Positions 3,857-58,437 of a DNA stretch of 64,000 nucleotides are shown here, piece by piece (positions within the stretch are counted from its first letter, which is position 1; every line of letters begins with the position of its first letter). The position numbers were made by a program, and so were the translations under genes. Source of the stretch: Acidobacteriota bacterium (GTDB lineage: Bacteria; Acidobacteriota; Thermoanaerobaculia; Gp7-AA8); NCBI GenBank assembly GCA_019244185.1, contig JAFATB010000006.1:96001-160000 (forward strand), in the 5' to 3' direction. The notes under the pieces were generated by a model, which made no database searches, was not told where the DNA came from, and saw only the letters and a list, made by a program, of their open reading frames with translations.

Positions 3857-4003
3857 GACCCACCTCTCTTTGTTGGTTCGGGACGCGCGCGTGACCGTCA
3901 TCACATGAGAGGAACGCGGTGCGGGATTTCTCGCCGTGAAGCCCCCGAAAAACTCTCGAATCCCGCCACATTTGTGCCGCAGTCGGAGTCCAGATTGAGG
4001 TCC

Positions 4004-23611: not shown

Positions 23612-23616
23612 CCGCC

Positions 23617-29518: not shown

Positions 29519-29595
29519 CCGGAGGATGCCATGACCTGAACCGCGATCTGCTCCGCATCCCGCCCGTACCACAGACCTCTTGAAGGAGGAGACGA

Positions 29596-30075
29596 ATGGC
29601 TGACGACAGCACGCAAAAATGGCTCGGTCGCAACCGTCCACCGCGCGTTCAGATCACCTATGACCTCGAGACCGGCGGCGCGATTCAGAAGAAAGAGCTC
29701 CCGCTGGTGGTGGGCATCCTCGCCGATCTCGCCGGCGACGATGAAGACACCGAGAAGCTGGCCACGCTCAAGAAGCGGAAGTTCATCGAGATCGACCGCG
29801 ACAACTTCAACGACGTCCTCAAGTCGATCGGACCGAAGATCACCGTGCAGGGCAAGGCGCTGAAGTTCTCGAAGATCGACGACTTCCGTCCGGAAGCGAT
29901 CGTCAAGCAGGTCGACGAGCTCTCGCAGCTCCTCGAGGCGCGCCGCAACCTCAACGACCTGCTGGCGAAGCTCGACGGCAACGACCTGCTCAACAAGGCG
30001 CTGACCGACGTCGTGGCCAGCACCGAGAAGCGCGCCACGCTCACCAAGGCGATCGAAGGAGGCACCAATGGCTGA
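29596..30075 (+). CDS. tssB: T6SS sheath small subunit TssB
   Basis: RNRPPRVQITYD, KELPLVVGILAD, IDRDNF, DDFRPE. Confidence 0.95.
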   Translation: MADDSTQKWLGRNRPPRVQITYDLETGGAIQKKELPLVVGILADLAGDDEDTEKLATLKKRKFIEIDRDNFNDVLKSIGPKITVQGKALKFSKIDDFRPEAIVKQVDELSQLLEARRNLNDLLAKLDGNDLLNKALTDVVASTEKRATLTKAIEGGTNG

Positions 30076-31648
30076 TCAGGAACCGGGCGCCGAGTCCAAA
30101 CCGGCCGTGCAGGTGCTCGACGCGCCCGCGCTGCTCGAAGACATCATCAACAGCGGCAACCTCGCGCGCACGCCCCGCGAGACCGCCCTCAAGCTCCTCA
30201 ACGAGTTCGTCAAGCAGATCGTCAAGGACGACCAGATCGCCGCGGATCAGAAGCACGACGTGATCCAGAAGATCCAGCGCCAGGTCGCCGCCATCGACGA
30301 GGCCATCAGCGCCAAGGTCGACGCGATCCTGCACGACAAGAAGTTCCAGAAGCTCGAGTCCGCGTGGCGCGGCCTGCACTACCTGGTCATGAACACCGAG
30401 ACCAGCACGCGCCTCAAGCTGCGCGTCCTCTGCGTCGATCCGGTCACGATCGGCAAGGACCTCGCGCAGGCGGCCGACGTCGACCAGAGCTCGCTCTTCA
30501 AGAAAGTCTACGAAGAGGAGTACGGCACGTACGGCGGCAATCCGTTCAGCGTGCTCGTCGCCGACTACGAGTTCGGCCGCAACGCGCCCGACATCGAGTT
30601 GCTCAAGAACCTCTCGAAGGTCGCCGCCGCCGCGCACACGCCGCTCATCGCCGCGGCGTCGCCGGGCCTCTTCGACATGGAGTCGTTCACGGAGCTCGGC
30701 AACCCGCGCGATCTCGCCAAAGTGTTCGAGAGCTCCGAGCTCGCCGCGTGGCGTTCGTTCCGTGAGAGCGAGGACGCGCGCTACGTCACGCTCACGCTCC
30801 CGCGCTTCCTCATCCGCCTGCCGTACGGCGACAAGACGGTCCCCGTCGAAGGCTTCGGCATGCAGGAAGACGTCAGCAACGGCGCGGAAGTGGCCGTCGT
30901 CGTGCCGGAAGGCGCCGATGAGAAGACCGCCGACATGCTCCTCGTGCGCGCGAAGAACCGCCGCCCGAAGGTGCACGCGAAGTACCTCTGGGGCAGCTCC
31001 GCGTACGTCCTCGCGCAGCGCATCACCAACGCGTTCGCGATGTACGGCTGGTGCGCCGCCATCCGCGGTCCCGAAGGCGGCGGCATGGTGCGCAGCCTCC
31101 CGGCCTTCACGGTCGAGAGCGAAGAAGGCGACAAGACGCTGCAGTGCCCGACCGAGCTCGCGATCACCGATCGCCGCGAGAAAGAGCTCGACTCGCTCGG
31201 CTTCATCTCGCTGCTGCACTGCAAGGGCACCGACTACGCGGCGTTCTTCGGCGGGCAGACGATCCACAAGCCCCCCGTGTTCGATACCGACGCCGCGAAT
31301 GCGAACGCCGCGATCTCCTCGCGCCTGCCGTACATCCTCGCCGCGTCGCGTTTCGCGCACTACCTCAAGGTCATCTGCCGCGACAAGGTCGGCAGCTTCC
31401 AGACCAAGGACACGCTCTCGCAGTTCCTCAACCGCTGGATCATGACCTACGTCCTCGGCACCGACGACGCCGGTCAGGAGCTCAAGGCGCAGTATCCGCT
31501 GCGCGAGGCGCGCATCGACGTCGTCGATGTTCCGGGCAAGCCCGGCGCGTACCGCGCGGTCGCGTTCCTGCGTCCGCACTTCCAGCTCGAAGAGCTCACG
31601 GCGTCGATCCGCCTCGTCGCGGAACTGCCGCCGCCGGCCGCCGCCTGA
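30068..31648 (+). CDS. tssC: T6SS sheath large subunit TssC
   Basis: FQKLESAWRGL, EEEYGTYGG, RLPYG, ITDRREKEL, RFAHYLK, LRPHFQLEEL. Confidence 0.97.
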   Translation: MADQEPGAESKPAVQVLDAPALLEDIINSGNLARTPRETALKLLNEFVKQIVKDDQIAADQKHDVIQKIQRQVAAIDEAISAKVDAILHDKKFQKLESAWRGLHYLVMNTETSTRLKLRVLCVDPVTIGKDLAQAADVDQSSLFKKVYEEEYGTYGGNPFSVLVADYEFGRNAPDIELLKNLSKVAAAAHTPLIAAASPGLFDMESFTELGNPRDLAKVFESSELAAWRSFRESEDARYVTLTLPRFLIRLPYGDKTVPVEGFGMQEDVSNGAEVAVVVPEGADEKTADMLLVRAKNRRPKVHAKYLWGSSAYVLAQRITNAFAMYGWCAAIRGPEGGGMVRSLPAFTVESEEGDKTLQCPTELAITDRREKELDSLGFISLLHCKGTDYAAFFGGQTIHKPPVFDTDAANANAAISSRLPYILAASRFAHYLKVICRDKVGSFQTKDTLSQFLNRWIMTYVLGTDDAGQELKAQYPLREARIDVVDVPGKPGAYRAVAFLRPHFQLEELTASIRLVAELPPPAAA

Positions 31649-31677
31649 TGCGCGCGGTCTGAAGAAGGAGACCAACG

Positions 31678-32184
31678 ATGGCAACCAACATGTACATCAA
31701 GTTCGAAGAGCCGGCGATCGAGGCCGCGAGCACTGCCGCGGGCCACGAGAAGGAGCTCGAGGTCCTGTCGTGGAGCCATGGCTTCGCGCAGCCGACGAGC
31801 GCCACGCGCAGCACCGCCGGCGGCGGCACGGTCGAACAGGCGTCGCACCAGAACCTCAGCTTCACCAAGTACCTCGACTCGGCCACGCACGCGCTGCTCA
31901 AGTACTGCTGGAGCGGCAAGCAGATCGGCAAGGCCACGCTCACCTGCTACCGCTCCTCGGGCGCGGAAGACAACAAGCCGGTCGAGTACCTCAAGGTCGT
32001 GATGGAGCACGTGATCATCTCCAACTACAGCGTCTCCGGCGGCCCCGGCGACCTGCCGGTGGAGAACGTCGCCCTCGACTACGGCATCATCCAGTACAAC
32101 TACGTCGACCAGAAGCACGCCGACGGCTCGGCCGACGGCAACAAGCCGGCCAAGCACAACCTCGAGACCAGGAAGATCGAGTAG
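31678..32184 (+). CDS. hcp: T6SS tube protein Hcp (TssD)
   Basis: IEAASTAAGHEKELEVLSWSHG, FTKYLDSAT, PVENVALDYG. Confidence 0.95.
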   Translation: MATNMYIKFEEPAIEAASTAAGHEKELEVLSWSHGFAQPTSATRSTAGGGTVEQASHQNLSFTKYLDSATHALLKYCWSGKQIGKATLTCYRSSGAEDNKPVEYLKVVMEHVIISNYSVSGGPGDLPVENVALDYGIIQYNYVDQKHADGSADGNKPAKHNLETRKIE

Positions 32185-32190
32185 TTGCTC

Positions 32191-32661
32191 ATGGCCGCAA
32201 ACGAGATCCATGTCCGCGCCCCGCTGTTCGACCGTCTGGTCGACGGCAACGCCATGGACCATGAAACACGCCCGTTGCGCACGCTCGATCGTGCGGGGCT
32301 GAAGCAGTCGGTGCGCCGGGAGCTCGAGCTCCTCTTCAACACGCGCTGCGCGCTCCCGGTGCACCACCTTCCCCCGTCCGAACGAACGGTCGCCGACTAC
32401 GGCGTGCCCGATCTCACGCTGTTCTCCGCTCGCGATCCGGCGGACCGCGCGTCGCTCGCCGACGCGCTCCGCCGCGCCGCGACGGCCTACGAGCCTCGCC
32501 TGCGCGACGTCCGCGTTGACGTCGTGCCGGCCGGCCCGAGCGAGCGCGCCGTCAGCGCCAACTTCTCGGCGCTCCTCGTCATCGAAGGCGTCCCCGAGTC
32601 GGTCTCATTCGAAGCGGTCCTGTCGGTCCGGGATGGAAAGGTCCACGTCGATGCCGGCTAA
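32191..32661 (+). CDS. tssE: T6SS baseplate subunit TssE
   Basis: PLFDRL, SVRRELELLFNTR, YGVPD, YEPRL. Confidence 0.93.
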   Translation: MAANEIHVRAPLFDRLVDGNAMDHETRPLRTLDRAGLKQSVRRELELLFNTRCALPVHHLPPSERTVADYGVPDLTLFSARDPADRASLADALRRAATAYEPRLRDVRVDVVPAGPSERAVSANFSALLVIEGVPESVSFEAVLSVRDGKVHVDAG

Positions 32662-34468
32662 CGAAGATGTGCTGCGCTGTTACCTCGAAGAGCTCTCCTA
32701 CCTCCGCCGCATGGGCGAGCGGTTCGCGCACGAACACCCGAAGATCGCGCGCCGGCTCGAGCTGCAGTCCGACGAGTGCCCCGATCCGCACGTCGAACGG
32801 TTGATCGAGTCGTTCGCGTTTCTCACCGCGCGCATCCAGAGCAATCTCGAACACGACTTCCCCGAGGTCGCGTCGGAGCTGCTCAATGTCTTGTATCCGC
32901 ATTACCTGAATCCGATTCCGTCGATGACCATCGTCCGCTTCGATCTCGATCCGGACGCGAAGCTCACCGAGCCGCAGGTCGTGCCGCGGCAGACGCAGCT
33001 CTTCACGCACACCGCGGAAGGCGCGGTGGTGCGCTTCCGCACCGCGTATCCGGTGACGCTCTGGCCGATCGAAGTCGTCGACGCCACGTTCGGCGCCGCG
33101 ACGGAGCTCGAGCTCCCCGCGCGACGCGCGCGTCCCGCATCCGTGCTGCGCCTGCGCCTCCGTTCCCGCGGCGAATCGTTCGAGCGCCTCGGCGTGGACC
33201 GGCTGCGCTTCTACCTGCACGGCGACATGGTCGTGAATCGCCTCTATCCGATGATGCTGGCGCCCACGGCCGCGAATGACCGTAAGCGCGTCGCCGTCGT
33301 GCCCGCGGAATCGCGTGACGTGCCCGACCTGCCGTATCTCTCCGTCGAACAGGTCGGCTTCGGCGACGACGAGGACGTCATCCACTACCCGCGGCAGTCG
33401 CATCCCGCGTATCGCTTGCTGCAGGAGTACTTCGCCTTCGAGGAGAAGTTCCACTTCATCGACGTCGCCGGACTGCGCGGCCGCGCGTTTGGTCAAGAGA
33501 TTGACCTTCTGTTTCTCCTCGACGGCGACCCGCGCCACCGCCTGCTCGTCTCCGCGGAAGCGTTCGAGCTCGGCTGCACGCCCGCGGTGAACCTCTTCGA
33601 GATGCGCAGCGAGCCGATTCGCATCGACCACCGCCGCACCGACTACAAGCTCACCGCCGACTATCGCCGCGAGCGCGCCATCGAGATCCATTCGATCCGC
33701 TCCGTCTCCGGCTCGTCCGACGTCAACGAGACCTCGCGCGAATACGCGCCGTTCTACAGCTACACGCACGCGATGGCCCGGCGCGCGCAGAGCGCGTTCT
33801 GGCACGCGCGGCGCGTCCCCAGCCTGCGCGACGACGCCTTCGGCAGCGAGATCTTCCTCTCGTTCCACGACAGCGACTTCGATCCCGCGAAGCCGGCCGA
33901 CGAGGTCGTGTTCGCGCACCTCCTCTGCACGAACGGCCGCCTCGCCGCGGAGCTCCCCGCGGGTTGCTCGCTGCAGACCGACGACTCGCTTCCGGTGCGC
34001 GCGATCGTCAACCTGCGCAAGCCGACGCGCCCGTTCGCGCCGCAGCATCGCGGCGAGGCGCTCTGGCGGCTCGTCTCGCATCTCTCGCTCAACTACCTCA
34101 CGCTCGAAGGCGAGGAAGCGGTCAAGGCGCTGCGCGAGATCCTGTTTCTCTACGCCACGCCCGACTCGCGCGCGCAACGCCAGCGCATCGACGGCATCAA
34201 GTCGCTCGCCGCCGAATCCGCCGTGCGGCGCATGCCCGGCGGCGCGTGGAACGGCTTCGTGCGCGGGACCAGGATCTCGCTCACCTTCGACGACTCGCTC
34301 TACGCCGGACACGCGGCGTTTCTCTTCGGCTCCGTGCTGAGCCAGTTCCTCGGGCTGCACGCATCGATCAACTCCTTCACGCAGCTGTCCGTGCTGCGCG
34401 AAGGCGACGAGCATCACGAGAAAGGAATGCAATGGCCGGCGATGGCGGGCGGCAGAGCCGTCCTCTGA
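32651..34468 (+). CDS. tssF: T6SS baseplate subunit TssF
   Basis: DPHVERLIESFAFL, YPHYLNPIPS, LLQEYFAFEEKF, WRLVSHLSLNY, SINSFTQL. Confidence 0.96.
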   Translation: MPANEDVLRCYLEELSYLRRMGERFAHEHPKIARRLELQSDECPDPHVERLIESFAFLTARIQSNLEHDFPEVASELLNVLYPHYLNPIPSMTIVRFDLDPDAKLTEPQVVPRQTQLFTHTAEGAVVRFRTAYPVTLWPIEVVDATFGAATELELPARRARPASVLRLRLRSRGESFERLGVDRLRFYLHGDMVVNRLYPMMLAPTAANDRKRVAVVPAESRDVPDLPYLSVEQVGFGDDEDVIHYPRQSHPAYRLLQEYFAFEEKFHFIDVAGLRGRAFGQEIDLLFLLDGDPRHRLLVSAEAFELGCTPAVNLFEMRSEPIRIDHRRTDYKLTADYRRERAIEIHSIRSVSGSSDVNETSREYAPFYSYTHAMARRAQSAFWHARRVPSLRDDAFGSEIFLSFHDSDFDPAKPADEVVFAHLLCTNGRLAAELPAGCSLQTDDSLPVRAIVNLRKPTRPFAPQHRGEALWRLVSHLSLNYLTLEGEEAVKALREILFLYATPDSRAQRQRIDGIKSLAAESAVRRMPGGAWNGFVRGTRISLTFDDSLYAGHAAFLFGSVLSQFLGLHASINSFTQLSVLREGDEHHEKGMQWPAMAGGRAVL

Positions 34469-35528
34469 AGCGCTCCGTGCGCGACGAGCTGTTCGACCAC
34501 GCGTCGGAGTTCTCCTTCGCGCAGGCCGTGCATCTGCTCGAGCGCATGCGCGAAGACGCCACGCCTCCGGGCGAGGGCGTGAGCCCGCGGCGCGAGCTCG
34601 CGCTCTTCCGCCACGCCGTGCGCCTCGATCGTCCCGACAGCGACATCGAAGAGCTGACGCCGGCGCTGGACGATCAGCCGCCGGTCATGACCGTCAACGT
34701 GCTCGGTCTCACCGGCACCGAGGGTCCGCTTCCGCAGCACGTCACCGAGCGCGTCGTCGAGCGCGCGTTCCGCGGCGACCGCGCGTGGCGCGACTTCCTC
34801 GACATCTTCAATCACCGCCTGATCTCGCTGCTCTATCGCGCGCGGAAGAAGTACCGGCCCGCGCTCGACGCGCGCGGCCCGCATCGCGGCCGCGTCGCGT
34901 CCGTCCTCTATGCGATCCTCGGCCTCGGCACGCCGCACCTGCGCAACCGCCTCGGCATCGACGACCGCGCGCTGCTTCCGTACGCCGGTCTCTTCGCCGA
35001 GAACACGCGCTCGACCATCGGTCTCGAGCGCATCGTCGAAGACTGCTTCGGCGTGCGCGCGACCGTCGTGCCGTTCCGCGGCCAGTGGCACACGCTCGAA
35101 GACGACGACCGCACGCACCTCGGCGTCACGGGACAGAACCAGCTCCTCGGCCGCGGCGCGGTGCTCGGGCGTTCGATCTGGGACGAGGCCGCGGGCTTCG
35201 AGCTGCGCCTCGGACCGCTCTCGCTGCCGCAGTTTCTGTCCTTCCTTCCGGGCGGACATGCATATCGTTCGCTCGCGGCCGTCGTGCGCTTTTACATCCG
35301 GGAGGAGCTCGGCTTCACCATCCGTCCGGTGCTGCGGAAAGATGCCGTTCCGCGCCTCCGCATCTCCCGCCACGGCCACGCGAGCCTCGGCCGCACGTCG
35401 TGGCTGCACCGCACGCCGCACAAGCTCGGCAACGCGCGCAAGCTCGGTCCCGCGTTGCGCCTCGGCGACAACACGCGCCTCACGCGCGACACCTCCGACG
35501 ACACGCAGGTGCGGCTGGTGGCGCGCCG

Positions 35529-35532
<4 letters not shown>
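34432..35532 (+). CDS. tssG: T6SS baseplate subunit TssG
   Basis: FSFAQAVHLLE, GLTGTEGPLP, DFLDIFNHRL, FLPGG. Confidence 0.94.
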
Positions 35533-38092
<2,560 letters not shown>

Positions 38093-38096
<4 letters not shown>

Positions 38097-38833
38097 AGCG
38101 CCGCGTGCGACTCACGATCGACCGCCGCGTCGCGCGAACCGCACTGGCCGCGCTGGCAATGCTGCACCTGCTCGTCCTGGCGTGCGGCGCGCTCGTCGCG
38201 ATGCGGCCGCGCGAACCCGAAGAGGCCACGCCGATTGCCGCGCCGCTCGTCGCCGCCACGACCGCGGTGCCGCCCTCCGCCCTCCCGCTCCCGCTGCCGC
38301 CGCTCGCGTCACAAACGCGCACCGCGCCGTTCATGCGCGCGGCATTCGACGCCCAGCCGCCCGCCGCGACGTTCTCCGCCGCGCTCGCGCGTCCGCTGTT
38401 CGTCGCGCGCCGCACGTCGACGCGCACCGCGCGCTTCGCGCCGCTCATCGACGCCGCCGCGCGCGAGCACGATCTCCCGCCGCTCCTCGTCACCGCCATC
38501 GCGCGCGTCGAATCCGACTTCGATCCATACGAGGTCTCGAACAAAGGCGCGCGCGGATTGCTGCAAGTGATGCCCGAGACCGGCGCGCGCTTCGGCGTGC
38601 ACCCGTCGCTGCTGTTCGATCCCGAGCGCAACCTCGCCGCCGGTACCGCCTACCTCGCCTGGCTCATGGACCGCTACCGCGGCAACCTCGATCTCGCCCT
38701 CGCCGCCTACAACGCCGGCGAAGGCGCTGTCGACAACTACCGCGGCATCCCGCCGTATCGCGAGACGCAGAACTACGTGCGCAAGGTGCGCGCGGAGCTG
38801 CGCAACCTCGAGTGGCGCGCGTCGGCGGAGTGA
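38093..38833 (+). CDS. SLT-domain lytic transglycosylase, last gene of the tss operon
   Basis: VESDF, SNKGARGLLQVMPET, LAAYNAGEG, PPYRETQNYV; N-terminal TM. Confidence 0.92.
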
Positions 38834-38840
38834 CGCGTTC

Positions 38841-40037
38841 CTACGTGTACTTGCCGGTGAATCGGCGGCGCGTGGAGCGATCGAGATTGCTGATGTCGCC
38901 GTACGCGTTGGCGATCGACTGGTTCGTCTCATCGCGCAGTTGCGAGCCCCATCCGCGACGCACCGGTCCCTGATAGGCGGCATCGGCCGGCGAGTAACCG
39001 AGTCCCGCCATCACCCTCCAATGGACCCAGTCGTCGGAAGGATCTTCCGCTTCGATCGGCACCGCCATGGTCACGCCTTCGACGCGCAACTCCGCCGCGC
39101 ACGCCTTGCAGATCGGCTTGTTGACCCAGATCGTCGTGCCGGCCAACGCCTTCGCATGATGTTTGAAGAAGGCCACCATGCGCATCTCGGCGTGCCAGCC
39201 GGTGTGACGCGAGCCCGCGTCGACGTACGTGACGCCGAGCGCCGCCATCGCGTCCTGGCAGTTGCGGCAGTTGTCCTGTTCGATGAGGTAATACGCGCCG
39301 CCCGACTGCAGCAGCGCGGTCGTTCCCTGCGAGTCGCCGCCCGAGCGCGTGTCCGCGCGCAGCTGGCGTAAGCCGTCCATGCTTTTCAGATGCGCCACGG
39401 GATCGGCCGGAGCGCCGCCGACGTCATCGTTCCGGCCGCCGAGACAGTAGCTCAGTCCCCAGGCCACCGCGCCGACGGTCGCCACCGCCGCGAGTCCGAG
39501 GCCGATGGTGATCGGTTCGATCCGCTGCACGGTCGCGCCGCCGAACCTCGGCTGCACGAGCCGCGGCACGTGCGCCGCGGCTTGCTGTCCCAGCCGGTGC
39601 GCCTCCGACTCCAGCATCGGATCGTGCACGACGGCCACGCCGCTGCCGAACGGATTGCGCACGCGGGCGGCGCGCTGCTGCACCACGTGCGCGAGCTCGT
39701 GACCGAGCATCTGCTGCCCGTGACGGCTGACCGGATCATAGTGGCCGGGCGCGAAGTGAATGTTCGAGCCGCGCGTGAATGCCGTCGCGCCGATCGCCGT
39801 CGCCCCGGGACCGACGTGGATGCGCACGTCCGCGAAGGACGTGCGGAAAAACGACTCCATCTTCTGGCGCACCGCGACCGGCAGCGGTTGTCCCGTGCCG
39901 TGCGTCTGCATCGCAAGCTGCGGCGGCAGTTGCACCGACGAGCCGGTGGGCGTCGCGCGCCGCTGCAGCACCGGCGACGCGATCCGCGTGAGCCCGTTCG
40001 GAAAAGCGCCTTGAATCACGTCGCCGGAATTGTGCAT
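38841..40037 (-). CDS. DUF4157 (eCIS-core)-like protein with TM segment and C-terminal deaminase toxin domain
   Basis: GQPLP...KMESFF...DVRIH...AIGATAFTRGSNIHFAPG...LGHELAHVVQQ; VQR; TM ITIGLGLAAVATVGAVAWGL; deaminase motifs HAE and PICKAC. Confidence 0.85.
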   Translation of the reverse strand: MHNSGDVIQGAFPNGLTRIASPVLQRRATPTGSSVQLPPQLAMQTHGTGQPLPVAVRQKMESFFRTSFADVRIHVGPGATAIGATAFTRGSNIHFAPGHYDPVSRHGQQMLGHELAHVVQQRAARVRNPFGSGVAVVHDPMLESEAHRLGQQAAAHVPRLVQPRFGGATVQRIEPITIGLGLAAVATVGAVAWGLSYCLGGRNDDVGGAPADPVAHLKSMDGLRQLRADTRSGGDSQGTTALLQSGGAYYLIEQDNCRNCQDAMAALGVTYVDAGSRHTGWHAEMRMVAFFKHHAKALAGTTIWVNKPICKACAAELRVEGVTMAVPIEAEDPSDDWVHWRVMAGLGYSPADAAYQGPVRRGWGSQLRDETNQSIANAYGDISNLDRSTRRRFTGKYT

Positions 40038-40069
40038 GGATGCCCGGACGGAAGTATGCGCCGGCACGG

Positions 40070-40498
40070 TCAGCAGCGCCAGCGCAACCGTACGCCGAAG
40101 ATGGCCGCACCCGCCGCGACGATCGCGAACGCCGCGCCGCCGCTGATCGTGGCGTACAGCAGCGAGAGATGCATGGTGTGCCATGCGACCGCGAATCCAT
40201 ACGCGACTCCTGCCACGGCGCTGCACGCGATTGCGACGATTACCTGCAACCACGCCGTCGCGTTGCGCAGAAGGCCGATGCAGAGTCCGCACAAGACGGC
40301 CAGCGGCGCCGCGCGCAGATACAGCGACGGCCCGAGGAAGAGCAGCATCGCAGGAACGTCGGCGAGGTTCTCCGAGAGCTGCGGGAGAAACAACGTGTAG
40401 ATGACAACGCTGAGCGCAACCGCCGGCAGCGCCAGCACCGCCGCGGCCGCGGCATAGCGCAGCAATCGCGCGGTTGCCAGCGACGCGGCGTCCGCCAT
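40070..40498 (-). CDS. Four-TM membrane hypothetical protein
   Basis: Four hydrophobic stretches; start uncertain. Confidence 0.55.
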   Translation of the reverse strand: MADAASLATARLLRYAAAAAVLALPAVALSVVIYTLFLPQLSENLADVPAMLLFLGPSLYLRAAPLAVLCGLCIGLLRNATAWLQVIVAIACSAVAGVAYGFAVAWHTMHLSLLYATISGGAAFAIVAAGAAIFGVRLRWRC

Positions 40499-40505
40499 CT
40501 CGCGG

Positions 40506-40679
40506 TCATTCTCGCAGAACGCGTACGAGAACGCGGTCAATGCCGACGCGAAGCTGCGCGACAAATTCCTCGACGAGCTGCTCGCCGCGAAGAACGCGGG
40601 CAGACTGAAAGAGGCGTACGTCGACGCGGCCGTGAAGCGCTGCGAAGAGCCCGGCGAAGTAACCCAGCGCGCACCTTAA
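40506..40679 (+). pseudogene. Start-less 3' gene fragment
   Basis: Reads ...QNAYENAVNADAKLRDKFLDELLAAKNAGRLKEAYVDAAVKRCEEPGEVTQRAP* with host codon usage; upstream in-frame TAG and no start. Confidence 0.4.
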
Positions 40680-42271
40680 CTGACGAGCAGCGCCAGCTCG
40701 GCCATCCGTTTCAGATGGTGCTCGACGAGCGCCTCGAGCACGGACGGGATGCGGCTCGGATCGGGGATCGCAGTGCCGCCGGCGTGAATGTCGAGTCGTC
40801 CCGCGGCGGCTTCGGCGTCGAGGAAGCGCACGAGCGCGGCGCGGTCGCGCGTGCCGTCGAGTTGCAGGAGGAGCGTCCGCGCGAGCGGGTCATCGAACTT
40901 CAGCACGCGGCCGCGCTGGTTCGTCACGAGCAAGCCGCGCGCGGCCTCGCGGCGTGCGAACGGCGTCGCCCGCGGGTGTTCGCTCACCACGCTCGTGCAG
41001 AGCGGTGCCGCCGTGTGCAGCAGGACCACGCCGCTCCAGAAGAGCGCGTGCAGCAGATCGGGCAGCACCTCATCCGCGTCGTCGGGCGCGCCTGCGGCAC
41101 GCAGGCGGCGATGCACGTCCGACGCGAGCTCGTCCAACGAAAGCGCGCCGGGCCACGCGGCCGCGAGCGCGACCAGCGTCGCCTTCGCCACCGGATGGCT
41201 CGACGAGAACGGCTTCCCGCGCTCGTTGTGAAAGCTCTCGCTCATCCCCGTGCGCAGATCGGGCGCGGCGCTCTGCGGCTTGCTCGGCGACGCCGCGTAC
41301 AACGCGCGCATCGTCTCCGGCCGCATCGTCCGATCCAGCGCGCGCTCGCCGTGCGCGAGCAGCGTGCGGCGGAACGTGCGGTTCAGCACGAAGTCGAGAT
41401 ACTGCTCGAGCTCGATGCGATCGCTCGCGAACGCGCGCAACTGCTGCGCGACGTTCGCCGGCAGGTTGTCGACTTCCGCCTCGTGCGCCTCCGCCTCCGA
41501 CACGTACTGCAATCCGTGCCGCGACGCGCGCCATGCAAAATCACGAAAGTAGAGCGGCGCGTTCGTCTCCTCGAGGTACTCGTGCAGCACGTAGCTCGGC
41601 TGATCGCGATACTCCTCGAGATGCTCGCGCGCGCCGCGCAGGTAGACCGCGTGCGGATCCTGCGCATCGCCCGCCGCATCGGCCAGCACGGCCACGAGCT
41701 CGAACGCCTTCGCCGCGCGCAGCTCCGGCTCGTCGATGCCGCGCGTATGAAACAGCAGCATCTCGCGCAGCATCCGCCGCAGGTGCCAGCCGGGGTACGT
41801 GTTGTAGCTGATGTACGCGAGGCCCTGCGGCGCGAGCTGCGCGCGCACGATCGCGAGAATGCGCTCCTGCACGTCGGGCGTCACCCACGAGAAGACGCCG
41901 TGGCAGAGGATGTAGTCGAACGTGCCGAACGACGCGTCGAAGTCGAGGATGCTCATCGCGCGCAGCTCGACGTTCTCGATCCCGAGTTCCGCGAGCTCCG
42001 CCCGTCCTTCTTCGATCTGCCGCGGTGAGAGATCGATCCCGACGAAGCGCGACTCCGGAAACGCCATCGCCATCGGAATCAAGTTCGCGCCGTTCGCACA
42101 TCCGAGCTCGAGGACGCGGCAGCGCTCCGGCAGCGCAGGCGTCAGCCCGTGCAGACGCGCGAGCGTGGCCAGCCGGTCGGGATGCGTGTGATGTTGCGCG
42201 GCCGCGGCGTACGGCACGAGCTCGTACGAATGGCGAACCTTCCCTTCGACGTCACGATTCTCCGGCGTCAT
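40676..42271 (-). CDS. Class I SAM methyltransferase with methyltransferase-regulatory-type domain
   Basis: SYELVPY...THPDRL, VLELGCANGANL, FDYILCHGVFSWV, YISYNTYPGW, HEYLE, EQYLDF, RTFRRTLL. Confidence 0.9.
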   Translation of the reverse strand: MTPENRDVEGKVRHSYELVPYAAAAQHHTHPDRLATLARLHGLTPALPERCRVLELGCANGANLIPMAMAFPESRFVGIDLSPRQIEEGRAELAELGIENVELRAMSILDFDASFGTFDYILCHGVFSWVTPDVQERILAIVRAQLAPQGLAYISYNTYPGWHLRRMLREMLLFHTRGIDEPELRAAKAFELVAVLADAAGDAQDPHAVYLRGAREHLEEYRDQPSYVLHEYLEETNAPLYFRDFAWRASRHGLQYVSEAEAHEAEVDNLPANVAQQLRAFASDRIELEQYLDFVLNRTFRRTLLAHGERALDRTMRPETMRALYAASPSKPQSAAPDLRTGMSESFHNERGKPFSSSHPVAKATLVALAAAWPGALSLDELASDVHRRLRAAGAPDDADEVLPDLLHALFWSGVVLLHTAAPLCTSVVSEHPRATPFARREAARGLLVTNQRGRVLKFDDPLARTLLLQLDGTRDRAALVRFLDAEAAAGRLDIHAGGTAIPDPSRIPSVLEALVEHHLKRMAELALLVS

Positions 42272-42325
42272 TGGGCGAGCGCCGGCGCGGCGCATCCCGG
42301 AGGCACCGGCGCCGGGAGCATCGGC

Positions 42326-42943
42326 TCAGCGGCCGCAGCGTCCGCCGCGGCACGTCGGTGCGTGATGGCCCGGCGCGCACGGGGCGGCGCCGGGACGCGC
42401 GAACTTGCCCTGCACGGGCAGCGTGTGCGCGGCGGCGCGGGCGCCGAGGCGATCGGCTTCCGCCTCGAGCGAATGATCCTGCACGACGGCGACGCCGCTG
42501 CCGAACGGATTGCGAACGCGGCCGGAGCGCTGCTGCACGACGTGCGCGAGCTCGTGGCCGAGGATCTGCTGGCCGTTCGGCGAGGACGGGTTGTACTGGC
42601 CGGGAGCGAAGTGGATGTGCGAGCCCTGCGTGAAGGCGAGCGCGCCGATCGCCGACGCCTGCGGACCGACGTGCACGCGAACGTCGGCGAACGACGTCCC
42701 GTAGAACGACTCCATCTTCTGGCGGATGGAGGGAGGCAGCGGCTCGCCGCCGATGGTGGCGAAGTTCGCGAGCGTATCCGGAAGCTGCATCGCGTTCGCC
42801 CCGCCGTGCGGCTGCGCGACCGCATGCAGCTGCGGCGGCGTGGCCTTCGCCTGCTGCGGCGCGTTGCGCATCACACGCTGGCGCACCTCGGCGATGCGCG
42901 AGAATCCTTGCGGAAAGTGTCCCTGGATCACGGACGTACGCAT
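42326..42943 (-). CDS. Stand-alone DUF4157-like protein with short Cys/His/Arg-rich tail
   Basis: SD AAGGAG; close paralog of 38841..40037 through HELAHVVQQ...RVRNPFGSGVAVV; ends VQGKFARPGAAPCAPGHHAPTCRGGRCGR. Confidence 0.85.
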   Translation of the reverse strand: MRTSVIQGHFPQGFSRIAEVRQRVMRNAPQQAKATPPQLHAVAQPHGGANAMQLPDTLANFATIGGEPLPPSIRQKMESFYGTSFADVRVHVGPQASAIGALAFTQGSHIHFAPGQYNPSSPNGQQILGHELAHVVQQRSGRVRNPFGSGVAVVQDHSLEAEADRLGARAAAHTLPVQGKFARPGAAPCAPGHHAPTCRGGRCGR

Positions 42944-43029
42944 GCGGTTCTCCTTCCGGATGGACTTCATGATAGGCCGCCCGATGTCCGCAGACAAGCG
43001 CGGCGCGGACGCGGGTCTACACTTCCGGC

Positions 43030-45087
43030 ATGCCATTCACGCAGGACGGGCAGTACATCTCCATCTCCACCCCCCTCGGAAAGGACAAGCTGCTGCTGCG
43101 GCGCTTCAGCGGCGAAGAGCAGCTCTCCGGCCTGTTTCACTACGCCCTCGAGATGCAGTCCGAGGACGGCGCGCTCGATTTCTCGAAGATCGTCGGCAAG
43201 GCCGTGACCATCAGCATCGTCCTCGCCGACGGCACCACGCGCTACATCAACGGCATCGTCGGCCGCTTCGTGCAGGCCGGCGCGGACGCGGAGTTCTACA
43301 GCTACGCCGCCGATCTCTACCCCTGGTTCTGGCTCACGACCATGATCGCCGACTGCCGCGTCTACCAGAACAAGAGCGTCATCGACATCATCACGGGCCT
43401 CTTCGGCGAGCTCGGATTCACCGACTATAAAAATAGTACGACCGGCACGTACGCGGCGCTCGAGTACTGTGTGCAGTACAACGAGACCGTGTTCGCGTTC
43501 GTGTCGCGCCTCCTCGAAGACGCCGGCATCACGTACCACTTCGAGCACGCCGACGGCGTGCACACGCTCGTCCTCGCCGACGATTCCTCGGCCTACGCCG
43601 ACTGCCCCGGCGCGGCCACCGTGGCGCTCGGCACCTCCGGCAACTGGCTGCAGCAGAACGTCATGACCTCGTGCGTCGTCGAGCAGGTGGTCATCCCCGG
43701 CAAGTACGCCGTCGACGACTTCGGCTTCGAAACGCCGTCGACCGATCTCATGGGCTCGACCGACAGCACGGTGGCCATCGACGGCAGCAAGCGTCGCATC
43801 TACGAGTTCCCCGGCGGCTTCGTGAAGAAGGACGCGGCGGAAACGCTCGCGAAACTGCGCATGGAAGAACAGGAGTCGCCGCAGAAGACGCTCACCGGCA
43901 CGAGCTTCTGCCGCGCGTGGTTCGCCGGCGCGAAGACGACGCTGGCCGGCCATTCGCGCGACGACGTCAACACCGCGTACGTCGTCTCGCGTCTCGTGCA
44001 CAACGCGTCGCTCGACGGCTACGGAAACTCGTTCGAGGCCTTCCCCGCCACGGTCACGTATCGCCCGCCGCGCGTCACGCGCCGGCCGATCATCCCCGGC
44101 ACGCAGACGGCGATCGTCGTCGGCAAGTCGGGCGAGGAGATCTGGACCGACAAGTACGGCCGCGTGAAAGTGCAGTTCCACTGGGACCAACTCGGGAAGA
44201 ACGACGAGAACAGCTCGTGCTGGATCCGCGTCGCGCATGGCTGGGCGGGTAAAGCGTGGGGACAGATGTTTCTCCCGCGCATCGGCCAGGAAGTCGTCGT
44301 CAGCTTCCTCGAGGGGAACCCCGATCGCCCGCTGATCACCGGCGCGGTCTACAACGCGGAGCAGACCGTTCCCTACACGCTGCCGGCCGATCAGACCAAG
44401 AGCACGATCAAGACGAACGTGTCGAAAGGCGGCGGCGGCTTCAACGAGATCCGCTTCGAGGACAAGAAGGATTCGGAGGAGCTCTTCGTGCAGGCGGAGA
44501 AAGACCGCAACACCGTCGTCAAGAACAACGACGACCTCAAGGTCGGCTTCGAGAAAAAAGACAAAGGCAACCAGACCATCGCCATCTACAACGACCGCAC
44601 GGTATCGCTCGACGAGGGCAACGAGTCGCTGCAGGTGAAGAAAGGCAACCGCACGATCAACGTCGACAAGGGCAACGAGACGCACAACGTCGCCGGCACG
44701 CGCGACGTGAAAGTGACGAAAGCCGAGACGCACACGAACGAAGACAACTTCGATCAGAAAGTCACGAAAAACTACACGCTGAAGATCGACGGCAACCTCG
44801 AGATCACCGTCACCGGCAAGGTCACGATCAAGTCGACGCAGGACATGACGCTGCAGTCGTCCGCCGCGCTCACCGCCAAGGCCGGCACCGATCTCAAGAC
44901 CGAGGGGCTGACGATCTCGAACAAGGCTTCGACGGACCTCAAGAACGAGGGACTGAACGTGACGAACAAGGCCAGCGTCAATCTCTCCAACGAGGGCGCG
45001 ATGATCGCGAGCAAGGCCTCGGGGATGCACAACGTGGAGGCGAGCGGCATCCTCGTCGTGAAGGGCTCGCTCGTGAAGATCAACTAG
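43030..45087 (+). CDS. vgrG: T6SS spike protein VgrG (TssI), no evolved toxin domain
   Basis: GEEQLSGLF, YCVQYNET, GTQTAIVVG, DKYGRVKVQFHWD, PRIGQEVVVSFLEGNPDRP, beta-helix C-terminus. Confidence 0.97.
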   Translation: MPFTQDGQYISISTPLGKDKLLLRRFSGEEQLSGLFHYALEMQSEDGALDFSKIVGKAVTISIVLADGTTRYINGIVGRFVQAGADAEFYSYAADLYPWFWLTTMIADCRVYQNKSVIDIITGLFGELGFTDYKNSTTGTYAALEYCVQYNETVFAFVSRLLEDAGITYHFEHADGVHTLVLADDSSAYADCPGAATVALGTSGNWLQQNVMTSCVVEQVVIPGKYAVDDFGFETPSTDLMGSTDSTVAIDGSKRRIYEFPGGFVKKDAAETLAKLRMEEQESPQKTLTGTSFCRAWFAGAKTTLAGHSRDDVNTAYVVSRLVHNASLDGYGNSFEAFPATVTYRPPRVTRRPIIPGTQTAIVVGKSGEEIWTDKYGRVKVQFHWDQLGKNDENSSCWIRVAHGWAGKAWGQMFLPRIGQEVVVSFLEGNPDRPLITGAVYNAEQTVPYTLPADQTKSTIKTNVSKGGGGFNEIRFEDKKDSEELFVQAEKDRNTVVKNNDDLKVGFEKKDKGNQTIAIYNDRTVSLDEGNESLQVKKGNRTINVDKGNETHNVAGTRDVKVTKAETHTNEDNFDQKVTKNYTLKIDGNLEITVTGKVTIKSTQDMTLQSSAALTAKAGTDLKTEGLTISNKASTDLKNEGLNVTNKASVNLSNEGAMIASKASGMHNVEASGILVVKGSLVKIN

Positions 45088-45088
45088 T

Positions 45089-46054
45089 TTACTTTTTGCC
45101 GCCGAAGAGGTCGGGACGCTCGAGCCGGTTGAGATAGGACGAGATGACGAACTGCTGCAGCTCGCCGCCTTCGCCCTGGGTGATGTCTCCTCTCTCGATG
45201 TGCAGCGCGATCAGCCGGCACAGCCCGTTGACCAGCTCTATGTTCAACGCGCCGTTGACGAATGCGGCGTTCAACTCATCGGCGAGCGCGGAGCGCAACG
45301 CCGTCGCGAAACTGACGCCGAGCTGGCCGCCGACACCGCTGGAGTAGACCTTGGCCGAGGCGCTCGAGCCGGTCGAACTGATGCCGCCGCCGCAGCCGGA
45401 CACGCCACCGCGATGCACGCTCTTCGGGATCTGGATGACGGGCGCGCTGCGATACGAGCCGCCCATGCCGGCGCTGCGATAGGAGGCGCCGGGCACGACA
45501 TGCTCCCATTCGGTCGGCTTGCCCTCGTGGCCGCCCTTCTGGTTGTAGTACTTGACGCCGACGCTGTCGCTGCCCGGCGGAAAGAGCGACTGCCGCGCGC
45601 ACTTTTCGCCGGCGTAGCAGAAGACGTCGCCGCAGTAGAGGCAGCACTGCACGACCCCGCGCGCGCGGCGTTGAATGGCAGGAGCCGCGACACGCGCGCC
45701 GGCGCGCTGCGCAGGCGCGATCGCGCGCTGGACGGCACCAACGCCGCGTTGCATCGCCGCCGCAACATGGGGCGCCGGTCCGGCCTTCGGCTGCACCGCT
45801 GCCGCAACGTGCGCTGCCGCGGGTGCCTTCATCGTCCGTTGCATCGCCGCCGCAACGTGCGGCGCGGGTCCCGTCTTCGGCTGCACCGCTGCCGCGACAT
45901 GCGCGGCCGCCGGCACCTTCATCGTGCGCTGCATCGCCGCCGCGACATGCGGCGCCACGGCTGCATGGCGCTGCACGGCCGCGGCCGGCGACTGAGGCGT
46001 TGCCACGCGATTCGCGGGCGCGGCTAGCGGAACGGGCGGGCGGCGATCCGGCAT
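45089..46054 (-). CDS. Putative effector: Ala/Gln-Arg repeat N-terminus + Cys cluster + HNH-like nuclease
   Basis: Repeats PHVAAAMQR/AHVAAAVQP; VVQCCLYCGDVFCYAGEKC; EWEHVVP...PVIQIPKSVH...STG. Confidence 0.7.
   Translation of the reverse strand: MPDRRPPVPLAAPANRVATPQSPAAAVQRHAAVAPHVAAAMQRTMKVPAAAHVAAAVQPKTGPAPHVAAAMQRTMKAPAAAHVAAAVQPKAGPAPHVAAAMQRGVGAVQRAIAPAQRAGARVAAPAIQRRARGVVQCCLYCGDVFCYAGEKCARQSLFPPGSDSVGVKYYNQKGGHEGKPTEWEHVVPGASYRSAGMGGSYRSAPVIQIPKSVHRGGVSGCGGGISSTGSSASAKVYSSGVGGQLGVSFATALRSALADELNAAFVNGALNIELVNGLCRLIALHIERGDITQGEGGELQQFVISSYLNRLERPDLFGGKK
45745..45955 (-). repeat. ~90-bp intragenic tandem repeat (30-aa unit, ~2.3 copies)
   Basis: PHVAAAMQRTMK(V/A)PAAAHVAAAVQPK(T/A)GPA repeated; boundaries approximate. 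Confidence 0.8.
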
Positions 46055-46098
46055 TTTTTCTTCCTGCCGGAACAACTTACGTCCGGCGCCACCGCGAA

Positions 46099-47103
46099 TC
46101 AACCCTTCCGTCGCGCGACCACGAGGTGCACGTCGTACTCGACTGCGCTTCGGTCGTGCAGCCGCACGCGCCACGGCACGGACGCCACCTCGCGGTCGAT
46201 CGCAAACTCCTCGGCCAGCAGCGCGCGCAGGATCGGCTCCGCGGCGCCGCCGTGCGGTCCGCGTTGCGAGTGGCCGCCGAGCCACCCTTCGACGGGCGTC
46301 GCGGACGCGGACCAGTCGTACGGCGTCGCGACGAGCGCGGTGCCGCCGCCGCGCATGACGCGCCCGAGCTCGCGCAGCACTTCCGCGGGCGACGGCGTGC
46401 AGTCGACGAGATTCAGACTCGCCGCGACTCCAAACGTCGCGCCGCCGAACGGCAGCGCCGCGGCGTCGCAGCACCAGAAGTCGACGCGCTCGCGCGCGGG
46501 CAGCGTGACGTCGTCCTCGCGCCGCTCGTACACGACGCCGACGCGACGCCGCGCGTAGCGCACGCGTCCTGCGCGCAACGCCTGCGACGCGATGCGCAGC
46601 ATGGCGAAGTTGAGATCGATGCCGACGGTCAGCGCGTTCGTGCGCTCCGCGAGCGCGAACGTGGTGCGTCCCGTCGCGCAGCCGGCGTCGAGCGCGGGAC
46701 CCGCGAGCTCGTGCGCCGCATCGAGTCCGCGCGCGAGCACGCGCAGCGCGGCGCCGCCGCCGGAGCCGTAGTGATCGTCCGCGTAGATGCCGGTGTGCTG
46801 GCGCAGCGTGTCGTAGGCGGAGCCGGGTCCGAGGACGTCGCCGAGGAGGGACTCGATCGGCGCGGAGAGATCGTCGCGCAGCAGCACCTGCAGCGGATTC
46901 GCGGCGAGCCAGGTGCGGATCGCGCCGACGAAGATCGGGATGCCGTCGATGATCGGATACTCGCGCGCGCAATCGCGTCCCGCGCAGACGACGATGCCTT
47001 CGAGCACATCGTCCGCGTCGCCGCGTTCGATCGACGACAGCGCGAGCGGCGCGCGGCACAACGGACAGACCGGCTGCAGCGCCTCGAAATGCGAGCGGCG
47101 CAA
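46099..47103 (-). CDS. SAM methyltransferase with N-terminal Trm112-like Zn-ribbon
   Basis: VCPLCR...CAGRDCAREYPIIDGIP; LDAGCATGR, GIDLN, DAAALPF, TPYDW. Confidence 0.85.
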   Translation of the reverse strand: MRRSHFEALQPVCPLCRAPLALSSIERGDADDVLEGIVVCAGRDCAREYPIIDGIPIFVGAIRTWLAANPLQVLLRDDLSAPIESLLGDVLGPGSAYDTLRQHTGIYADDHYGSGGGAALRVLARGLDAAHELAGPALDAGCATGRTTFALAERTNALTVGIDLNFAMLRIASQALRAGRVRYARRRVGVVYERREDDVTLPARERVDFWCCDAAALPFGGATFGVAASLNLVDCTPSPAEVLRELGRVMRGGGTALVATPYDWSASATPVEGWLGGHSQRGPHGGAAEPILRALLAEEFAIDREVASVPWRVRLHDRSAVEYDVHLVVARRKG

Positions 47104-47490
47104 TCAGCCTCCGATCAGCACCGTCGGACAACCGGGCGGAAGGACTTTGCCGGTCGGTCCCGGAATCGGCGCGACGCACGAGGTATGCGCCGTCATGTCG
47201 CCGGCGCGCGCGGCGGGCATGTTGCCGATCAGCACCGTCGCCGAGCCGAGCGCGATCATCCCCGGGCCGCCGGGAACGCAGCCCGGCAGCATGCACGGTC
47301 CGGTGGTGTCGGTGAGACGCGCGGCGGGCATGTTGCCGATCAGCACCGTCGCTTCGCCTTTGAGGATCGTGAGCGGCAGCGCGGGATGCGCGGACGGCGT
47401 CGGCACCGGCGCGGGCGGATGGATCGGCGCGTGGCAGTGCGGCGAATCCTGCAGCACCATGTCCGTCATCCGCGCGGCGGGCTTCGACAT
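47104..47490 (-). CDS. PAAR-domain spike tip protein
   Basis: Three PAAR motifs (KPAARMTD, MPAARLTD, MPAARAGD) and TVLIG repeats. Confidence 0.95.
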   Translation of the reverse strand: MSKPAARMTDMVLQDSPHCHAPIHPPAPVPTPSAHPALPLTILKGEATVLIGNMPAARLTDTTGPCMLPGCVPGGPGMIALGSATVLIGNMPAARAGDMTAHTSCVAPIPGPTGKVLPPGCPTVLIGG

Positions 47491-47524
47491 GCGGCCGAGT
47501 ATAGCTCCTGCTATTCTCGCGAAC

Positions 47525-47953
47525 GTGGGTGCCACCGAGCGGATCGAGCGCGATGACGCGGGGCGCGTCCGCCGCCGCTACTCCGTCGACGACGACGGCG
47601 CTCTCGACGGAGAGCTCGTGCAGTACGACGAGCAGGGACACGTCGAAGTGCAGCTTCCGTATCGCACGGGCGTGCTCGACGGCGAGGCGCGTTTCTTCGA
47701 GCGCGGGCGACTGCAACTGCGCATGACGTATCGCAACGGCCTCGAAGAAGGCGAGCGCATTCTCTACGGCGAGCAGAACAAGCCGGCCATGACGGTCACG
47801 GTGCGCGCGGGCGTGCAGCACGGCACGACGAGCTGGTTCCGCGCCGACGGCTCGCTCATGCGCACCGCCGAGTTCGTCGACGGCGAAATGAAGGGCGAGC
47901 CGGTCGACTACGACGAGCGCGGACGCGCGGCGAAGAAGACGACTCGCAAATGA
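47525..47953 (+). CDS. MORN-repeat (YwqK-like) protein
   Basis: Repeats LDGELVQYDEQG, YRTGVLDGEARFF, YRNGLEEGERILY, GVQHGTTSWF, FVDGEMKG. Confidence 0.85.
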   Translation: MGATERIERDDAGRVRRRYSVDDDGALDGELVQYDEQGHVEVQLPYRTGVLDGEARFFERGRLQLRMTYRNGLEEGERILYGEQNKPAMTVTVRAGVQHGTTSWFRADGSLMRTAEFVDGEMKGEPVDYDERGRAAKKTTRK

Positions 47954-48081
47954 AGCACACCATCGTCACGATCCAGCTGCATCGCAAGGGCGTGATCCTG
48001 GTCATCATCGGCGCGGTGCTGCTCGCGATCCTGCTCGTGACGGCGGGATATCTCGCCGGCGCGGCGTCCGTGTCGCACTGA
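47950..48081 (+). CDS. 43-aa single-TM peptide
   Basis: ATGA overlap with the MORN gene; MKHTIVTIQLHRKGVILVIIGAVLLAILLVTAGYLAGAASVSH*. Confidence 0.55.
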   Translation: MKHTIVTIQLHRKGVILVIIGAVLLAILLVTAGYLAGAASVSH

Positions 48082-58383: not shown

Positions 58384-58437
58384 GTCATTCAAAAGGAAGC
58401 GGTCACGTCGTGCGAAAGTCCAGTAGCGAAACCGTAG

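Follow-up and report, generated by a model that had tools for sequence, protein, structure and literature searches.

The 64,000-nucleotide stretch of DNA analysed here (the window; positions 96,001 to 160,000 of contig JAFATB010000006.1, assembly GCA_019244185.1) comes from an Acidobacteriota bacterium of the class Thermoanaerobaculia and encodes a type VI secretion system (T6SS) of subtype i (T6SSi). Around its spike genes, vgrG and the PAAR gene, lie a deaminase-like toxin and a stand-alone protein that both carry the domain DUF4157 (PF13699, eCIS_core), a marker of extracellular contractile injection systems (eCIS), and a repeat-containing toxin cassette without this domain. The T6SSi set is complete by Pfam (TssK, L, M, A, B, C, Hcp, E, F, G, ClpV, VgrG, and PAAR), as had been claimed in a sequence-only reading that preceded this analysis, and a 155-aa protein encoded 5' of tssK is a TssJ candidate, for which the lipobox read from the translation is the sole support. 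The source genome (assembly G000; 5.30 Mb in 26 contigs, 98.9% complete) contains a single copy each of vgrG, hcp, and a PAAR gene of this type. The G+C content of the window (68%) gives rise to many long spurious open reading frames (ORFs), and gene borders were set by frame plots of third-position G+C (GC3), three-frame translations, and a simple gene caller. The 483-aa deaminase ORF of the sequence-only reading proved to be over-extended, the real gene encoding 398 aa, and its 910-aa ORF at 45089-47821 is a high-GC artefact that runs over three genes (the repeat protein, the second methyltransferase, and PAAR), while a small ORF with four transmembrane (TM) segments directly 5' of the deaminase gene had been overlooked (Table 1).

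Table 1. Genes of the T6SSi locus, in window coordinates.
Feature	Position	Strand	Basis
T6SSi core operon: TssJ candidate, TssK, L, M, A, B, C, Hcp, TssE, F, G, ClpV	21834..38096	+	Pfam, lipobox, gene caller
SLT lytic transglycosylase, convergent with the deaminase toxin	38093..38833	+	PF01464, E 1.3e-28
DUF4157-deaminase toxin, clade B, 398 aa	38841..40037	-	PF13699, frame plot, alignment, AlphaFold2 model
Small 4-TM ORF, orphan, 142-164 aa, directly 5' of the deaminase gene	40070..40564	-	Frame plot, TM segments
PKMT-like S-adenosylmethionine (SAM) methyltransferase (class I methyltransferase + MethyTransf_Reg + PKMT_2nd) in the toxin operon	40676..42295	-	Pfam
Stand-alone clade-B DUF4157 protein, HELAH intact, short Cys-rich tail, divergent from vgrG	42326..43036	-	PF13699, E 7.5e-30
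VgrG, 685 aa, sole vgrG of the genome	43030..45087	+	Pfam; blastp against the genome
Toxin cassette without DUF4157: N-terminal 90-bp repeats and 197-aa nuclease-like C-terminal domain	45089..46054 (or 46006)	-	
Second methyltransferase (Cys-rich N-terminus and class I SAM methyltransferase), beginning directly after the PAAR stop codon	46099..47103	-	
PAAR, 128 aa	47104..47490	-	PF05488, E 1.5e-14
MORN_2 repeat protein, ~154 aa	47489..47953	+	Pfam

Both DUF4157 proteins match PF13699 well above its cut-off of 22 bits (89 bits and E 2e-25 for the protein with the deaminase, 103 bits and E 7.5e-30 for the stand-alone protein), which bears out the domain call made from the letters alone. Each carries HELAHVVQQR ... 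LE(A/S)EA, that is, the HExxHxxQ plus downstream Glu signature described for the PVC-metallopeptidase (PMC3482391, section 13). The stand-alone protein is ~205-236 aa long, with a likely start (MRTSVIQG) at ~42943. In the deaminase protein, a VIQGAFPNG N-terminus is followed by a VLQR motif, DUF4157 (HELAH) with an extension of the GRVRNPFGSG type, a linker with LVQP and TVQR motifs and one hydrophobic helix (residues 173-191), and a putative deaminase domain of the cytidine deaminase (CDA) fold (HAEM...PICKAC). The AlphaFold2 (AF2) model, built from a 52-row alignment, predicts strands at VIQG (residues 6-11) and LQR (26-28), with a predicted local distance difference test score (pLDDT) of 76-80 over residues 1-30, a confident domain up to residue 158, disorder from 162 to 207, where LVQP, TVQR, and the hydrophobic helix lie, and then the deaminase domain. 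Residues 40-158 weakly match M48-type and minigluzincin structures (Z 5.1 for 3c37_B, 5.0 for BepA 6ait_B, and 5.0 for abylysin 4jiu), and a profile search of the sequences of solved structures returned only BepA for the module (E 0.02-0.035) and no VgrG2b chain at E up to 1.

Comparison with related genomes divides the module into two lineages. Clade A is defined by 17 eCIS-adjacent copies from eCIS-positive, T6SS-negative relatives, which have an LQRKCACGG Cys motif and VRVHT and no extension, and clade B, the window type, has a VIQGxFPxG N-terminus, VRVHVGP, and the extension GRVRNPFGSGVAVVxDxxLExEAxR. A hidden Markov model (HMM) of clade B, built from ten window-type modules and scored over a class-level sample of 201 genomes, gives a bimodal distribution: scores of at least 149.9 bits occur only in the source genome (14 copies), G158 (6 copies and one frameshifted), G132 (5), and G192 (4), and every other copy of the sample scores 115 bits or less. 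In a maximum-likelihood tree, a branch of length 0.44 (support 90/92) has all 17 eCIS-adjacent rows on one side, the bootstrap being not fully settled. By sequence features, HMM score, and tree, the DUF4157 proteins of the window are a clade separate from the eCIS-adjacent copies. The 'eCIS-style' hybrid system proposed in the sequence-only reading thus gives way to a canonical T6SS that would have its own lineage of the module.

The source genome has 16 PF13699 matches spread on many contigs. All of its 14 clade-B paralogues have the N-terminal block and extension in common, with unrelated C-termini, and by this architecture they are a polymorphic-toxin family. A truncated clade-B copy in the same genome (G000:C13:151652-151930) and the frameshifted copy in G158 (G158:C81:11125-11596) suggest turnover in the family. 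Two of the 14 copies, together with the cassette, lie within 5 kb of vgrG, and the chance of at least one copy doing so is ~0.03.

The linkage to vgrG extends well beyond this genome. Among 80 loci with relatives of the window vgrG, inspected with up to 10 kb of flank each, 32 hold a total of 38 DUF4157 copies, all of clade B (178-244 bits) and none of clade A; of the 51 loci that extend at least 5 kb to both sides, 27 have such a copy. In the Pyrinomonadaceae, operons read TssG-VgrG-MORN_2-DUF4280-SPOR-DUF4157, the last gene encoding a stand-alone protein of 246 aa, and vgrG-linked clade B also occurs in two Pseudomonadota loci from metagenome-assembled genomes (L083 and L098). DUF4280 gave no match in the source genome, the control search likewise giving no match anywhere. 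On one Pyrinomonadaceae chromosome, TssG is fused to cupredoxin-like and cyclic-nucleotide-binding domains (L086, 8093-9946, +).

In five genomes reached via their vgrG loci, the vgrG-linked copies score 190-235 bits (clade B) and the copies beside the eCIS terminator gene 50-97 bits (clade A). Within each of G201, G202, G204, G205, G158, and G192, clade-B copies are found by vgrG and clade-A copies by the terminator gene. The two kinds of machine can lie close together, as an eCIS terminator gene (3024-3590) and tssC (29607-30539) are 26 kb apart on one contig of G146 (G146:C108). Across the 201 genomes, a strong PF13699 match is present in 27, the eCIS marker Pvc16_N in 29, and the T6SS marker VipB in 25. 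Clade B occurs in 4 of the 25 T6SS-positive genomes and in none of the 176 T6SS-negative genomes (Fisher p 2e-4), although the four genomes represent only two families, so that such p-values overstate the association. Gene positions and HMM scores, taken at the level of sequence, demonstrate that a distinct clade B exists, that it is physically linked to vgrG, and that its distribution follows T6SS rather than eCIS. The association of vgrG with DUF4157 is real and more than chance, and the tie of this DUF4157 type to T6SS, first read from the window by itself, is strengthened by the 32 vgrG loci and by two genomes that have neither of the two eCIS markers searched for.

Several observations weigh against a module dedicated to T6SS. 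At the level of the Pfam family, DUF4157 follows eCIS, since a strong match is accompanied by Pvc16_N in 22 of 27 genomes and by VipB in 8 of 27; G174 and G004, which are flagged as unpublished (as is G134, in the PF13699 count), are counted here, and without G174 and G004 the share with Pvc16_N is 20 of 25 and the clade-B counts are unchanged. Most T6SS-positive genomes of the class sample (21 of 25) have no clade B, and in a phylum-wide sample, with only 10 candidates scored per genome, it was found in 1 of 351 genomes, the source genome itself, so that the association rests on few lineages. Moreover, 12 of the 14 copies in the source genome lie away from vgrG, as do all five of G132. In G066, a genome of the same genus, a small DUF4157 protein that belongs to neither clade is encoded on a T6SS contig, 3 kb from hcp/tssC; it is ~130 aa long, with HELIH, and lies at ~3585-4011 (-) of locus L119 (G066:C376). 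The structural matches of the module are weak (Z < 8), and AF2 places the upstream hQR motif (h, hydrophobic residue) in an ordered strand, unlike a free cleavage site. In addition, the source genome itself holds a complete eCIS.

This eCIS operon lies on contig C10 (G000:C10:35371-66177; loci L016 and L017) and comprises genes for a Pvc16_N terminator, two sheath proteins, two gp19 tubes, CIS_tube, GPD, base_V, gp25, Baseplate_J, P2_I, and an AAA ATPase. A sigma-54 activator gene is located 5' of it, with LuxR-type and BTAD-like AAA regulators nearby. The sequence-only reading had named an eCIS locus elsewhere that accounts for these proteins as something that would speak against its own interpretation; such a locus is indeed present, but its contig has no DUF4157 gene, as none of the 16 PF13699 matches lies there, nor was a PAAR protein found there by Pfam. 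The clade-B proteins of the source genome could nevertheless be cargo of this machine, with the position by vgrG representing a recombination hot spot for toxin cassettes, considering that DUF4157 is published as an eCIS marker and cargo domain (PMC8213781; preprint 10.64898/2026.05.27.728243), that the C10 eCIS has no clade-A cargo of its own, and that most clade-B copies are dispersed in the genome. We regard this explanation as quite unlikely. Clade B is present together with T6SS in G132 (98% complete, five copies) and G203, where neither Pvc16_N nor a gp19-tube match was found, and the only two DUF4157 genes of G203 are of clade B and lie in its T6SS cluster. Furthermore, in six genomes with both machines the A copies are located by the eCIS and the B copies by vgrG, no clade-B copy is on C10, and the same-genus genome G082 has a similarly short Pvc16_N (an open frame of 222 aa compared to 218) with one weak partial DUF4157 match. 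On balance, the region is likely to encode the spike and the cargo of a canonical T6SSi, the cargo being polymorphic toxins built on the T6SS-specific DUF4157 clade B.

Regarding the toxin domains, zinc motifs, sub-threshold Pfam matches, and the predicted fold agree with a CDA-fold deaminase as the C-terminal domain of the 398-aa protein. The CDA zinc motifs are present (HAEM...PICKAC), OTT_1508_deam scores 19.6-21.7 bits, under its cut-off of 27, and MafB19-deam matches at E 0.009. With the toxin model as a query, nearly all of the first ~40 Foldseek rows are CDA-fold deaminases, every one at E > 0.05, and model residues 211-334 align with such deaminases at Z 5-6.1 over 95-112 residues, which is weak (Z < 8). 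The profile search of solved-structure sequences returned only T4 dCMP deaminase for this domain (E 0.33). In its four close homologues the domain occurs only behind PF13699, and in two of the four the HExxH motif is degenerate (QQLAH in P0005 and RQLTH in P0007).

The cassette protein (305-321 aa) has an N-terminal region encoded by a 90-bp tandem repeat (2.3 copies at 45747-45956) that is rich in A(V/M)Q(R/P), and this repeat carries the eight hhQ[R/P] motifs in the first 135 aa of the protein. The sequence-only reading had labelled its C-terminal domain as HNH; this label was not confirmed, as no Pfam family was matched by the domain in the cassette or in 51 other members scanned, and a nuclease is indicated by leads only. 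The 197-aa domain is predicted to fold confidently (pLDDT 87), and its language-model neighbours are the Tox-GHH2, Tox-SHH, and AHH clusters of HNH/EndoVII toxins (0.88-0.94). Its best structure match is 9J9W chain B (Z 7.4, root-mean-square deviation 3.3 over 112 residues; the next row has Z 5.7), which is also the first Foldseek row, at 18% identity. The entry is described as the TseN-TsiN complex, TseN being a T6SS DNase of Acidovorax citrulli (PMC12574953), and chain B is presumably the DNase rather than its immunity protein; the TseN DNase domain would then be the closest structure match of the cassette domain, although at a Z level where chance arrangements are common. Foldseek gave no match at E <= 0.001 for the deaminase toxin model or for the nuclease-like domain model, and the profile search of solved-structure sequences gave nothing meaningful for the latter. 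Residues E58, E60, H61, H90, and R91 and a GGGISSTGSS loop are conserved in the domain family, and overall the model-based matches suggest a nuclease-like domain. The family has 61 representatives among 1.84 billion proteins, and 16 of the 52 scanned members carry PF13699. P0002, the nearest relative at 58% identity, is a complete toxin of clade B and shares the junction GVVQCC(L/F)YCG. Because the same domain is fused there to a full clade-B block, the cassette appears to be a clade-B toxin that is devoid of the constant block and has kept an expanded linker.

The hhQ[R/P] motifs noted before the cargo domains are indeed a property of the linkers, where they are ~20-fold enriched: their density per 100 aa is 1.9 in linkers that precede the domain and 1.44 in the 45 residues after the module, compared to 0.054 in cargo domains and 0.075 in the called proteome. 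An alignment of 52 modules further shows an hQR(K) motif that is positionally conserved ~15 residues N-terminal to the domain. The lack of room for downstream immunity genes was also read correctly, as the deaminase and repeat-protein genes end convergently 7 bp from the SLT gene and 1 bp from vgrG, respectively, and similar arrangements recur in relatives and other paralogues. In the close relatives L021, L039, and G158:C102, the stand-alone copy is likewise divergent from vgrG, in the same layout, and is followed by further clade-B toxins and a PKMT-like gene whose coordinates leave no space for immunity genes. In the source genome, six fused copies end convergently with gaps of less than 75 bp (the two window toxins, C12:150090, C21:144833, C21:130366, and C4:460095), so that missing downstream immunity genes are the rule there. 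The 4-TM ORF, for which no homologue was found except itself, is a candidate immunity or accessory protein. The YwqK/YwqJ pair had raised the idea of MORN_2 as an immunity protein for the deaminase, which was rejected because the MORN_2 gene is kept beside PAAR or vgrG in most loci with or without the toxin.

These features can be combined into a possible mechanism. A constant N-terminal block of ~155 aa, comprising a VIQGxFPxG strand, an hQR strand, a zincin-like HExxH domain, and the GRVRNPFGSG...LExEAxR extension, is joined via a flexible, hQ(R/P)-rich linker to exchangeable toxin domains, here a putative CDA-fold deaminase and, in a cassette that seems to have lost the block, a nuclease-like domain. 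The block may be what links the toxin to the T6SS, and the toxin domain may be freed by cleavage of the linker, via its own peptidase or via the always-intact stand-alone copy beside vgrG. The uncleaved form may do the producer no harm, which would account for the absence of immunity genes. In stand-alone clade-B copies, HExxH is intact in 28 of 28 cases in the loci and in the one case in the window; in fused copies it is intact in 7 of 10 in the loci and in 8 of 13 in the source genome, where the other five are degenerate (RELAH, RQLAH, RQLAR). The overall contrast is 29 of 29 stand-alone copies against 15 of 23 fused copies (Fisher p 7e-4, with orthologues that are not independent). This pattern fits a function that needs catalysis in the stand-alone copy and one that is partly non-catalytic in the fused block, and it is an indirect hint that the stand-alone copy acts in trans.

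A further-reaching proposal is that DUF4157 serves contractile injection systems in general as a pre-toxin module and has diverged into lineages that are each specific to one machine. The stand-alone copy of the T6SS lineage would be a trans-acting maturase, cutting hQ(R/P) linkers and thereby arming latent toxins, including those with a dead peptidase (RELAH, RQLAH) and peptidase-less cassettes such as the 321-aa repeat protein, in place of immunity proteins, and the two methyltransferases (PKMT-like and PAAR-coupled) would modify the linkers or the spike. We offer this proposal tentatively and consider it doubtful.

Alternatively, the stand-alone protein by vgrG might itself be an effector, a peptidase like the VgrG2b C-terminal domain with the prey periplasm as its site of action, and the fused toxins would have no more than this domain in common with it. 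DUF4157-type metallopeptidases are reported as T6SS cargo and as VgrG/PAAR extensions (PMC6899460; PMC3482391), and the intact HExxH in 29 of 29 stand-alone copies would suit such a function. However, the neighbours of the stand-alone gene are vgrG and a methyltransferase gene, with no adjacent immunity-like gene, and the position of the block N-terminal to unrelated toxins is that of a pre-toxin module; the profile search that found BepA and no VgrG2b chain counts neither for nor against. An effector of this type therefore seems improbable. It is also conceivable that the proteins use neither machine and take another export route or act inside the producer, their linkage to vgrG reflecting co-regulation only. 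Many copies are orphan genes, and complex prediction of the module with the VgrG tip trimer, PAAR, and MORN_2 gave a score of 0.00, which is evidence neither way. On the other hand, no signal peptide was seen in the N-termini, and the combination of polymorphic-toxin architecture and vgrG linkage recurs across two phyla, so that this explanation is given as little credence as the previous one.

Several neighbouring genes are also conserved with the spike. The PAAR and Cys-rich SAM methyltransferase genes have adjacent stop and start codons in the window (46099-47490, -), and most Thermoanaerobaculia loci and three Nitrospinota loci have this gene pair as well (L019-L060, L087, L090, L092); a literature listing on PAAR, methyltransferase, T6SS, and VgrG contained nothing on a PAAR-coupled methyltransferase. 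The PKMT-like gene is kept near vgrG in Thermoanaerobaculia (L021, L025-L043, L052, L057, L060) and has MethyTransf_Reg and PKMT_2nd, the architecture of rickettsial lysine methyltransferases; the toxin linkers often read hQ(R/P)K. The MORN_2 gene adjoins PAAR or directly follows vgrG in most of the loci L019-L098, from Acidobacteriota, Nitrospinota, and Pseudomonadota, and its product looks like an unrecognised accessory of this T6SS lineage. Elsewhere in the window, an 831-aa caspase-domain protein (Peptidase_C14; 2102-4597, -) adjoins a tetratricopeptide repeat protein. Between 56000 and 64000, the G+C content falls from ~0.67 to 0.62 and a phage-type integrase is encoded (57325-58392, -), and this part may be the edge of an island.

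DUF4157 is regarded as the hallmark of eCIS cargo, and eCIS toxins are predicted with it as a feature. The distribution of the two clades suggests that the same kind of toxin 'handle' serves both injection machines. If a sister lineage is dedicated to T6SS, the module would not be what selects the machine, which fits its dispensability for AlgoCIS loading (preprint 10.64898/2026.05.27.728243). Clade B would also serve as a new marker by which sequences from Acidobacteriota and other groups can be mined for T6SS toxins; it flags at least 14 toxins in the source genome, most with unannotated C-terminal domains. The two clades would furthermore provide a natural pair of related cargo modules for dissecting eCIS versus T6SS loading. 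The proposed processing role is open to direct test, given the contrast between the stand-alone copies, always intact, and the fused copies, often degenerate, and given that immunity genes are repeatedly missing. No literature on a T6SSi-specific N-terminal DUF4157 lineage was found, in a search that covered neither subscription journals nor supplements, and in the literature searched no paper joined Acidobacteri*, type VI secretion, and DUF4157. In the passages considered from publications on DUF4157 and T6SS, the subjects are VgrG2b-type effectors, eCIS cargo, and archaeal contractile injection systems, and clade B is not among them.

Conserved N-terminal blocks that mark unrelated toxin domains as T6SS substrates are known as MIX, FIX, RIX, and prePAAR, and these are not peptidase-like; by analogy, clade B may be an N-terminal T6SS marker of this kind. 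Its closest counterparts are peptidase-like modules of contractile injection systems. The PVC-metallopeptidase is described as the N-terminal releasing peptidase of PVC-secreted polymorphic toxins, which often have no immunity genes, with rare C-terminal fusions to T6SS proteins (Zhang et al., 2012, PMC3482391), and DUF4157 is a core eCIS marker (Geller et al., 2021, PMC8213781), for which a chaperone role in cis or in trans has been proposed (Danov et al., 2024, PMC11297309). The DUF4157 toxins of eCIS, including Cgo1 and Cgo2 of AlgoCIS, resemble clade B in their N-terminal HExxHxxQ...E zincin-like module, linker, and variable toxin domains, including deaminases and nucleases, as well as in the many copies per genome and the frequent lack of adjacent immunity genes. 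Clade B differs in forming a separate branch with an added C-terminal extension, in its position adjacent to vgrG, and in its presence where no eCIS was found. The N-termini also differ: VIQGxFPxG is predicted by AF2 to be ordered, whereas in eCIS cargo the N-terminus is either of the LQRKCACGG type or a disordered loading sequence, of the kind recognised by the Afp15-type ATPase, and AlgoCIS loading requires the disordered N-terminus rather than DUF4157 (preprint 10.64898/2026.05.27.728243). The VgrG2b-type peptidase effectors likewise have a DUF4157-annotated HExxH domain within T6SS clusters (Wood et al., 2019, PMC6899460); there, the domain is itself the toxin, C-terminal or alone and with an immunity protein, whereas in clade B it is N-terminal to other toxins. 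Finally, the haloarchaeal 'T6SS' of the contractile injection system type secretes DUF4157 substrates, some of them toxic, by a cell-anchored contractile system (PMC11566945), although that machine belongs to the CIS/eCIS lineage and its toxins have downstream partners, whereas the machine encoded here is, as read from its genes, a TssA-M/ClpV T6SSi.

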